Source: a virus (lineage: Duplodnaviria; Caudoviricetes). From it: a DNA stretch of 64,000 bases. Position numbers and translations under genes: made by a program. The notes below the pieces were generated by a model that worked only from the letters and a program-made list of their open reading frames with translations, was not told where the DNA came from and ran no database searches. The stretch spans positions 1 to 64,000 of IMG/VR virus record IMGVR_UViG_3300037484_000235. One strand, 5' to 3'. This document shows, piece after piece, positions 50,846 to 60,458 of this stretch. Numbering within the stretch: the stretch's first letter is position 1; every line of letters starts with the position of its first letter.

Positions 50846-50887
50846 CCTCACCTGTGTAACTGGCGAGACTCAGCCGATTACACGATT
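50846..50887 (-). promoter_or_regulatory. bipartite promoter-like element
   Basis: AATCGTGTAA-N16-AGTTACACAGGTGAGG; 39/42 identical to 55256-55297. Confidence 0.85.
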
Positions 50888-51090
50888 CAACGGGCCTTCT
50901 TTTGGAGGCAGTCCCTCAGCCGGGCATCCGCTTCCAGGTAGGCAGCAAAGGCCGCCCCCACGTCCTTGAGGAGAGGTTGAATCTCCGGATCCTCGGGAGT
51001 CACGGAGGCAGCCAGGAAATCAGGACGTACCGCATCCGAAAGGAAAAGAGCACTGAAGTGGGGGGTATCCATGGTGTTAGGGCGGGTCAT
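50887..51090 (-). CDS. hypothetical protein
   Basis: ATGA overlap. Confidence 0.55.
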   Translation of the reverse strand: MTRPNTMDTPHFSALFLSDAVRPDFLAASVTPEDPEIQPLLKDVGAAFAAYLEADARLRDCLQKKAR

Positions 51091-51269
51091 GCGCAGGGCT
51101 CTACTCGTGCAGTGAAGGACCGTCCGAGGCGTACCAGGGCGTTCTCTGCGCCTCGCAGCGTGCGGTAGACTCGTGCGGAGTACCCGCCGGGCCCGATGAG
51201 GTGTGTCCACTCCCCTGTGGTAGCGAGCACCAGTGCTGGATTCACCGTGGAGCGCAGGATGTAGATCAC
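51087..51269 (-). CDS. hypothetical protein
   Basis: GTG 4 nt after the mini-pilin stop. Confidence 0.6.
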   Translation of the reverse strand: MIYILRSTVNPALVLATTGEWTHLIGPGGYSARVYRTLRGAENALVRLGRSFTARVEPCA

Positions 51270-51273
51270 TTGC

Positions 51274-51390
51274 TTACCAGAACTTTGCGATGAAGTGATA
51301 GAGGACCATGGCAATAGTGCTGAAGACTGCCACAGCGACTACGATGGACAGAAGCTCCACCAGTGTGAATCCGGAGTTTCGCTTGATCAT
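51274..51390 (-). CDS. 38-aa type IV prepilin-like peptide (not in ORF track)
   Basis: MIKRNSG|FTLVELLSIVVAVAVFSTIAMVLYHFIAKFW; first gene after the element. Confidence 0.8.
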   Translation of the reverse strand: MIKRNSGFTLVELLSIVVAVAVFSTIAMVLYHFIAKFW

Positions 51391-51405
51391 TGGATGTGTG
51401 TTCCT

Positions 51406-51478
51406 CTCACCTAAGTAACGAGTGGGGCCTTGTGGATTACACGATTTCGGAGGATTTCGCGCAGTGGATTACACGATT
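51406..51478 (-). promoter_or_regulatory. bipartite element with an extra upstream box
   Basis: AATCGTGTAATC at 51435-51446 and 51467-51478; N16 to CGTTACTTAGGTGAG. Confidence 0.85.
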
Positions 51479-60417: not shown

Positions 60418-60458
60418 CTCACCTAGGTAACGGTTGAGCCCACCAGGATTACACGATT
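60418..60458 (-). promoter_or_regulatory. bipartite promoter-like element
   Basis: AATCGTGTAA-N16-CGTTACCTAGGTGAG. Confidence 0.85.

Follow-up and report, generated by a model that had tools for sequence, protein, structure and literature searches.

The 38-codon open reading frame (ORF) at positions 51,274 to 51,390 of the window, i.e. the whole 64,000-nucleotide stretch of DNA analysed here, is an early gene of a huge phage. Its product is a two-part membrane micro-protein, in which a pilin-type address is followed by a conserved C-terminal tail, HFIAKFW, that runs directly into the stop codon. The HFIAKFW-stop ending characterises a large family of phage membrane peptides of 30-60 residues, found described nowhere in the literature or the family databases searched. 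Judging from sequence, the peptide would most likely interfere with pilus or secretion machinery, or with entry across the inner membrane. The window is the first part of a 252,521-bp IMG/VR virus record with a judged completeness of 57%, so the source genome is a fragment of a huge phage.

The frame lies where a preliminary description of this DNA had placed a 38-residue ORF, and runs on the minus strand from an ATG at 51390-51388 to a TAA at 51276-51274. It translates to MIKRNSGFTLVELLSIVVAVAVFSTIAMVLYHFIAKFW, which is split at the predicted cleavage site into the leader MIKRNSG and the mature peptide FTLVELLSIVVAVAVFSTIAMVLYHFIAKFW; the exact 38-residue protein from the same contig is present in a public protein collection. 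The ORF is almost certainly a real gene and a member of the HFIAKFW-tail family, because of both its score against a leave-one-out family profile and the recurrent promoter and ribosome-site module upstream of it. The profile, built from 187 family members with the window sequence excluded, gives the window ORF 47.5 bits (E 6.9e-13), compared with 5.4 bits for the next best of 6,988 six-frame genome segments. The alternative of a frame open by chance, or of one that is not translated, has only the short length of the ORF in its favour, and is extremely improbable in view of the profile E-value, the hundreds of relatives of equal length and end, the purifying selection acting on those relatives, and the canonical promoter and ribosome-site module directly upstream. 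No close relatives of the window region were found in viral contigs with the neighbouring 179-aa ORF and the CCA-type enzyme as queries, and megablast of 5 kb of the region against cultured phages gave no match; the evidence for conservation therefore stands at the level of the family.

Table 1. Features of the mini-prepilin locus (window coordinates).
Feature	Position	Strand	Basis or remark
Promoter box 1, distal copy, AATCGTGTAATCC	51466..51478	minus	Overlaps stop codon of upstream gene; no CGTTAC box after it
Promoter box 1, proximal copy, AATCGTGTAATCC	51434..51446	minus	Part of complete module
Promoter box 2, CGTTAC, 13 nt after box 1	51415..51420	minus	Genome-wide context of box 1
Ribosome-binding-like element AGGTGAGAGGAA, 10 nt before ATG	51401..51412	minus	Same element type at other modules
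Mini-prepilin gene, 38 codons plus TAA	51274..51390	minus	ORF translation, profile scores
Leader MIKRNSG, with the predicted prepilin peptidase site after Gly-1	51370..51390	minus	Sequence, family statistics
Mature residues 1-24, FTLVELLSIVVAVAVFSTIAMVLY, pilin alpha1N-like transmembrane helix with Thr2 and Glu5	51298..51369	minus	Profile match to pilins, AlphaFold2
Invariant C-terminal tail HFIAKFW, stop codon immediately after	51277..51297	minus	Family conservation
Second small ORF of transcription unit, 60 codons, GTG start	51087..51269	minus	No family match
Third small ORF of transcription unit	50887..51090	minus	ATGA overlap with second ORF

The box 1 motif AATCGTGTAATCC has 25 matches in the window with at most two mismatches (1.03 expected), and its strand tracks gene direction, being plus before about 25 kb and minus after. 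Genome-wide, a CGTTAC-like box follows box 1 at 27 of 36 motif sites, and is itself followed by a ribosome site of the AGGTGAGG type (AGGTGAG-type) and an ATG; the spacing of 13 nt between box 1 and CGTTAC was counted base by base at three sites only (boxes 51446, 52460 and 54184). The arrangement AATCGTGTAATCC-spacer-CGTTAC-AGGTGAGG-ATG is a phage-specific promoter-like module. Module sites span window positions 7816-61769 and occur elsewhere in the genome at 65158, 82444, 84459, 85298 and 108535, with a concentration in the first 65 kb. The module is not sigma-70-like, and at the site at 60458 no ATG follows it. Scans of the mini-prepilin region found neither a sigma-70 promoter nor an Rfam family. 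The “double-box promoter” of the preliminary description holds insofar as there are two copies of AATCGTGTAATCC, but only the proximal copy has the full module, the distal one being a bare extra copy. The accompanying statement, that the gene is placed first behind the promoter, is essentially right, its ATG being the first start codon downstream of the complete proximal module. The three small ORFs of the transcription unit are tightly coupled, with the GTG of the second lying 4 nt past the mini-prepilin stop (junction at window 51267-51276) and the second and third joined through their overlap (window 51087-51090); TGGTAAG is a possible ribosome site for the second. The next promoter box after the third ORF is at 50875-50887.

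Class III signals consist of a hydrophilic leader ending in Gly or Ala and 20-25 mainly hydrophobic residues, often with Glu at position 5 (PMC10191384). The window peptide has both such a leader and such a hydrophobic stretch: a basic, hydrophilic leader of seven residues is followed by Gly-1, Phe+1, Thr+2, Glu+5 and a hydrophobic helix. The chain ends 31 residues past the predicted cleavage site, with no globular head and no alpha1C, and so does not have the lollipop build of type IV pilins (alpha1C on a globular head). All features listed in the preliminary description (basic leader, Gly-1, Phe+1, Glu+5, helix, no head) are found in the translation, and the class III signal recognised there is real, with complete sequence features and Glu+5 kept across the family. 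The HMM match that it proposed as a check came out divided, since Pfam PF07963 (N_methyl) scores just under its cut-off (20.5 against 21.2 bits) and NCBIfam TIGR02532 above (17.0 against 16.3 bits). No other class III-like motif occurs in any of the six reading frames of the 252,521-bp genome. The processing motif of Flp/Tad pilins is G/xxxxEY; with G/FTLVEL, and no EY at +5/+6, the window peptide was rejected as a Flp/Tad (type IVc) pilin.

No prepilin peptidase gene was found in the 252 kb of phage DNA at hand. The candidate explanation that the phage supplies its own enzyme was discarded on that account, and a host enzyme is therefore needed. Removal of the leader by host prepilin peptidase is probable on the strength of the sequence features, and the family-level conservation of the class III signal would fit prepilin peptidase processing together with some pilin-like step after cleavage. 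The hint of a piliated host in the preliminary description is a weak one: a host peptidase is required, but the enzyme is present in nearly all bacteria.

The turning point of the analysis was a tblastn search of cultured phages, which hit a 37-codon ORF, left without annotation, in vB_AdhS_TS3, a T5-like phage of Aeromonas. The TS3 peptide, with the leader MKRAKG and the mature part FTLIELIFCILALGLLGGGGYVVIHFIAKFW, ends in the same HFIAKFW-stop as the window peptide. This C-terminal module, H-F-I-A-K-F-W-COOH, is the most conserved part of the peptide and had been missed in the preliminary description. Searching viral contigs with a degenerate DNA pattern for the heptapeptide identified 11 more loci with short ORFs so ending (10 distinct peptides), on contigs with a G+C content of 36 to 62%; viral contigs that carry the tail range from 8 to 481 kb. 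An exhaustive search of 1.84 billion representatives with a profile made from 11 HFIAKFW-ending peptides returned 540 at E<=1e-3, nearly all of 36-45 aa and with matches extending to the final residue of the protein, so that the family comprises at least 540 clusters at 50% identity. A word-index search for the family gave 371 at E<=1. By comparison, the pattern with its stop matched four times in 185,579 bacterial and archaeal species genomes, where about three matches are expected by chance; the family is all but missing from bacterial chromosomes. Two of the four look real, and lie in Patescibacteria and Uhrbacteria (candidate-phyla-radiation) bins, possibly on co-binned phage contigs.

Gly-1 is present in 204 of the 214 members that were fetched. 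Position +1 is F or Y in 197 of these 204 and Glu is at +5 in 195 (96%); Thr+2 was among the criteria by which the 204 were selected. An alignment of 141 rows has G-1, T+2, H, K and the terminal W as invariant columns. The C-terminus H-F-[IVL]-x-K-[FY]-W followed by a stop is the rule in the 214 fetched members, and the window ORF conforms to it. The consensus leader of the family is MKxQxG, and Pro22 is absent according to the per-position profile. The mature peptide is fixed at one of two lengths: 179 members have 34 residues, and 19, the window and TS3 peptides among them, have 31. With 38 residues and a single transmembrane helix directly before the tail, the window peptide is within the length range of the family (about 30-60 residues). 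Between two T5-like phages, pN is 0.12 and pS 0.65, and the tail codons differ synonymously only; the HFIAKFW family is under purifying selection. Pfam, NCBIfam, PHROGs and the ESM Atlas hold nothing for the tail or for its prepilin-type and plain-anchor members, the only holin match in PHROGs being one at E 0.26, for a non-prepilin relative. A full-text literature search for the HFIAKFW motif found no paper, and broader searches found no description of the family. We considered the tail as a mimic of outer-membrane-protein C-termini and rejected it after a by-eye comparison: the DegS Y-x-F and BAM beta-signal motifs require an aromatic residue where the tail has Lys.

The tail is carried on two types of membrane anchor. 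Whole-peptide searches favour prepilin-type members; the proportions of the two types were taken from samples chosen by the tail only. Among metagenome contigs chosen in this way, 22 peptides are prepilin-type and 37 have an ordinary N-terminal anchor without the class III motif, while the counts are 6 prepilin-type to 4 plain-anchor in viral contigs and 1 to 1 in genome contigs. The full prepilin signal is thus found in about 40% of tail-chosen members and is missing from about 60%. The two forms are discrete, with one near-intermediate only in the metagenome sample, and nearly every member of the prepilin form keeps Thr2 and the membrane-buried Glu5. The conserved core is a transmembrane helix plus (Y)xxxHFIAKFW-COOH, of which the pilin signal is one anchor form. 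As most tail-chosen members are without the prepilin signal, the core activity of the tail needs no pilin features and may be unrelated to pili. The term “headless pilin mimic”, used in the preliminary description, accordingly suits the prepilin half of the molecule but describes that half only, given that the invariant tail is also borne by non-prepilin anchors. Two huge phages (viral records of 209,766 bp and 480,838 bp) have one prepilin-type and one plain-anchor copy each, and their plain-anchor copies share the N-terminus M[KN]DFD.. At another viral locus, two plain-anchor tail peptides stand in tandem.

Members of the family are found in T5-like, T4-like, N4-like, lambda-like and huge phages. 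In T5-like phages the gene adjoins the pre-early genes A2 and dNMPase, and the vB_AdhS_TS3 copy (OP820700.1, 7483-7596) falls between two annotated CDS, in a stretch that has no annotation. The T4-like Aeromonas phage Ahp1 (Ahp1_CNU-2021) has its copy in the tRNA region, annotated as a hypothetical protein (QIW87140.1). A plain-anchor gene of the N4-like Stenotrophomonas phage C121 (C121_12; UKL14745.1, hypothetical protein) is 3.1 kb from the left end, and in a Paraburkholderia prophage the gene is part of an early operon, between repressor and recombination genes. The window gene lies behind its promoter module in an array of small genes. With the window counted, the gene belongs to an early region or has a promoter module upstream of it in four of the five contexts that could be placed. 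No neighbour gene was found to be conserved across the family loci; from this, and from the varied phage contexts, we conclude that the gene is a stand-alone one, passing from one type of phage to another. A peptide from a T5-like phage contig begins with the same 12 residues (MKRQQGFTLIEL) as a solved MSHA major pilin (PDB 9lab_B), and leaders in the family may copy the host's own major pilin.

In the AlphaFold2 model of the window peptide (pLDDT 86.9), a single helix extends without a break from mature residue 3 to the last residue but one. The family profile aligns with pilins of known structure (MshA, Geobacter PilA-N and PilA) over positions 1-27 only, and the tail has no match among solved structures. 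By the positive-inside rule, the leader would be cytoplasmic and the tail would lie at the periplasmic surface. Conservation along the helix body is periodic, the observed moment being reached by only 70 of 5000 shuffles, and mature positions 17, 20 and 21 repeatedly hold small residues; together these patterns hint at packing against another helix. A complex prediction for Aeromonas TapD (LEP4_AERHY) with a T5-like phage member had a score of 0.00, which we count neither way.

The mechanism that we favour, tentatively and as something a little short of probable, has two parts, delivery by the prepilin address and a block at the envelope by the tail. Soon after infection, the peptide would enter the inner membrane, its N-terminus facing the cytoplasm and its C-terminus facing outwards, and host prepilin peptidase would cut the leader and methylate Phe1. 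The 31-residue helix would then act as a pilin stalk and be drawn to a type IV filament machine, be it a pilus, a type II secretion system or a DNA-uptake pilus. The tail, at the periplasmic face of the membrane, would there act on a conserved host component. The outcome would be a block of the machine or of envelope traffic, for example the exclusion of other phages. Beyond a real early gene of two-part build, these steps are what we infer; the route of insertion is assumed, since co-translational targeting needs a chain longer than 38 residues. Poisoning of pili or type II secretion, leading to superinfection exclusion, as put forward in the preliminary description, is plausible from the sequence features.

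The two-part mechanism is favoured because Glu5, which is costly in the membrane, is near-universal. Strom and Lory reportedly found in 1991 that Glu5 is dispensable for cleavage and needed for methylation and assembly. In the pilus filament it forms a salt bridge (PMC10191384). The large plain-anchor branch is the main objection to targeting of pilin machinery. In addition, type IVa pilins have Pro22, and since the family is without it, entry into the filament may not be possible. It is somewhat unlikely that HFxxKFW-COOH serves many phages as a warhead directed at a single conserved host component on the periplasmic side of the inner membrane, and that the prepilin branch has captured the host pilin signal as an address; host prepilin peptidase and the pilin-sorting route would then carry a viral inhibitor into the type IV filament machine.

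Several other functions have to be weighed against this two-part mechanism. The tail could be an effector with a target other than the pilus, either another conserved component or a lipid on the outer side of the inner membrane, and might for instance block DNA entry by other phages; the prepilin signal would then be just one convenient route to a short peptide that keeps its N-terminus inside and leaves no stub in the cytoplasm. This is what one would expect from the ordinary anchors in about 60% of tail-defined members, from plain-anchor C121_12 in the N4-like Stenotrophomonas phage, from the presence of one copy of each type in the two huge phages, and from a tail more conserved than the rest of the peptide. 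We nevertheless regard it as unlikely, as a mere topology device leaves unexplained why Thr2 and the membrane-buried Glu5 are near-universal in the prepilin branch, and the finding of only one near-intermediate in the tail-chosen metagenome sample argues that the signal is not decaying. The near-universal Glu5 also bears on a second possibility, that the peptide is a sink or inhibitor of prepilin peptidase, i.e. an abundant PilD substrate or bound product that starves pilins and pseudopilins of processing. Glu5 is conserved though said to be unneeded for cleavage, and relatives without the signal cannot be PilD substrates. The complete class III signal, with a leader like those of major pilins, is in keeping with such a sink, the phage promoter module would permit strong expression, and the conservation of PilD across hosts could explain an invariant partner surface. 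The active sites of PilD are, however, at the cytoplasmic face (PMC10191384), on the other side of the membrane from the predicted periplasmic location of the tail. The simple PilD titration of the preliminary description leaves the invariant tail unexplained, and the sink in any form seems improbable.

If the peptide instead formed a self-assembling pore or depolarised the membrane in the manner of a holin or viroporin, the class III signal and the tail would serve oligomerisation, and the recurrent small residues at mature positions 17, 20 and 21 and the periodic conservation of the helix body would reflect helix-helix packing. A foreign partner helix fits the periodic conservation equally well, the genes are in early or pre-early regions and not in lysis cassettes, and PHROGs gave no significant holin match, all of which makes a pore quite improbable. 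Alternatively, the peptide could become a subunit of the pilus and, having no head, mask or thin out the sites to which pilus-binding phages attach, an idea in print for 60-residue phage PilA stubs (PMC12952977) and one with which alpha1N mimicry extending to Glu5 agrees. It is nonetheless very improbable here: the 31-34 mature residues are all hydrophobic or interfacial, so that the gap at the filament surface would expose the core, Pro22 is missing, and relatives that are not pilin-like have the tail as well.

As phage receptors, virulence factors and routes of gene transfer, type IV pili, type II secretion and DNA-uptake pili are of major importance, and a natural peptide of 31-34 residues that entered or blocked these machines would serve as a compact probe and inhibitor. 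If the warhead reading is true, it would define a new class of two-part, host-processed anti-envelope micro-proteins. A single odd ORF has led to hundreds of lineages that form one family, whose motif is sharply defined and open to testing, and the split between prepilin-type and plain-anchor members is a natural experiment on what the pilin signal contributes. Three cultured carriers, the Aeromonas phages vB_AdhS_TS3 and Ahp1_CNU-2021 and the Stenotrophomonas phage C121, make experiments possible. Phage genes of 30-40 codons, which are often skipped by annotation, as in the unannotated TS3 copy, can rank among the most conserved.

Among known systems, the window peptide resembles type IV pilins and pseudopilins (MshA, PilA, GspG) in its basic leader running to Gly, the F-T-L-V-E start with Thr2 and Glu5, and the alpha1N helix, and the leader of solved MshA, MKRQQG, resembles the family consensus. 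It differs from them in having no alpha1C, head or Pro22, in its invariant non-pilin tail, and in being encoded by a phage without adjoining assembly genes. Truncated PilA-like proteins of about 60 residues have been described from six virulent Pseudomonas phages, with incorporation into or inhibition of the pilus proposed without tests (PMC12952977, Cell Rep 2026). These too are phage-encoded headless peptides of virulent phages with a prepilin-type N-terminus, but the tail family has far more members, spread over many types of phage. A probable example, vB_PaeM_G1 orf026, has 59 residues, a hydrophilic C-terminal half and no HFIAKFW tail; its similarity to the tail family is limited to about residues 1-26, and it belongs to a different family. 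The window peptide was rejected as a P-PilA stub of about 60 residues, as it is without the hydrophilic, alpha1C-like half of about 30 residues.

P-FimU proteins are phage copies of the minor pilin FimU that alter the pilus and exclude pilus-binding phages (PMC12952977). The likeness lies in the phage-encoded mimicry of a pilus subunit. P-FimU is a full-length folded pilin of temperate phages that replaces one defined host subunit, whereas the window peptide is headless and its relatives are in early regions of mostly virulent phages. The pilin stalk of Geobacter PilA-N (Geopilin domain 1), the shortest in nature, is a helix-only pilin and among the best PDB profile matches; in the Geobacter pilin, stick and head are two proteins (PMC10191384). 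It differs from the window peptide in its 61 residues, in being a host protein with a separate head protein, and in having no HFIAKFW tail. Likeness to small phage exclusion proteins of the inner membrane such as T4 Imm, which are early, membrane-inserted and act at the envelope, is by analogy only, as there is no sequence relation to the window peptide. The idea of a phage pilin stub is already in print; the HFIAKFW tail family is the new part.
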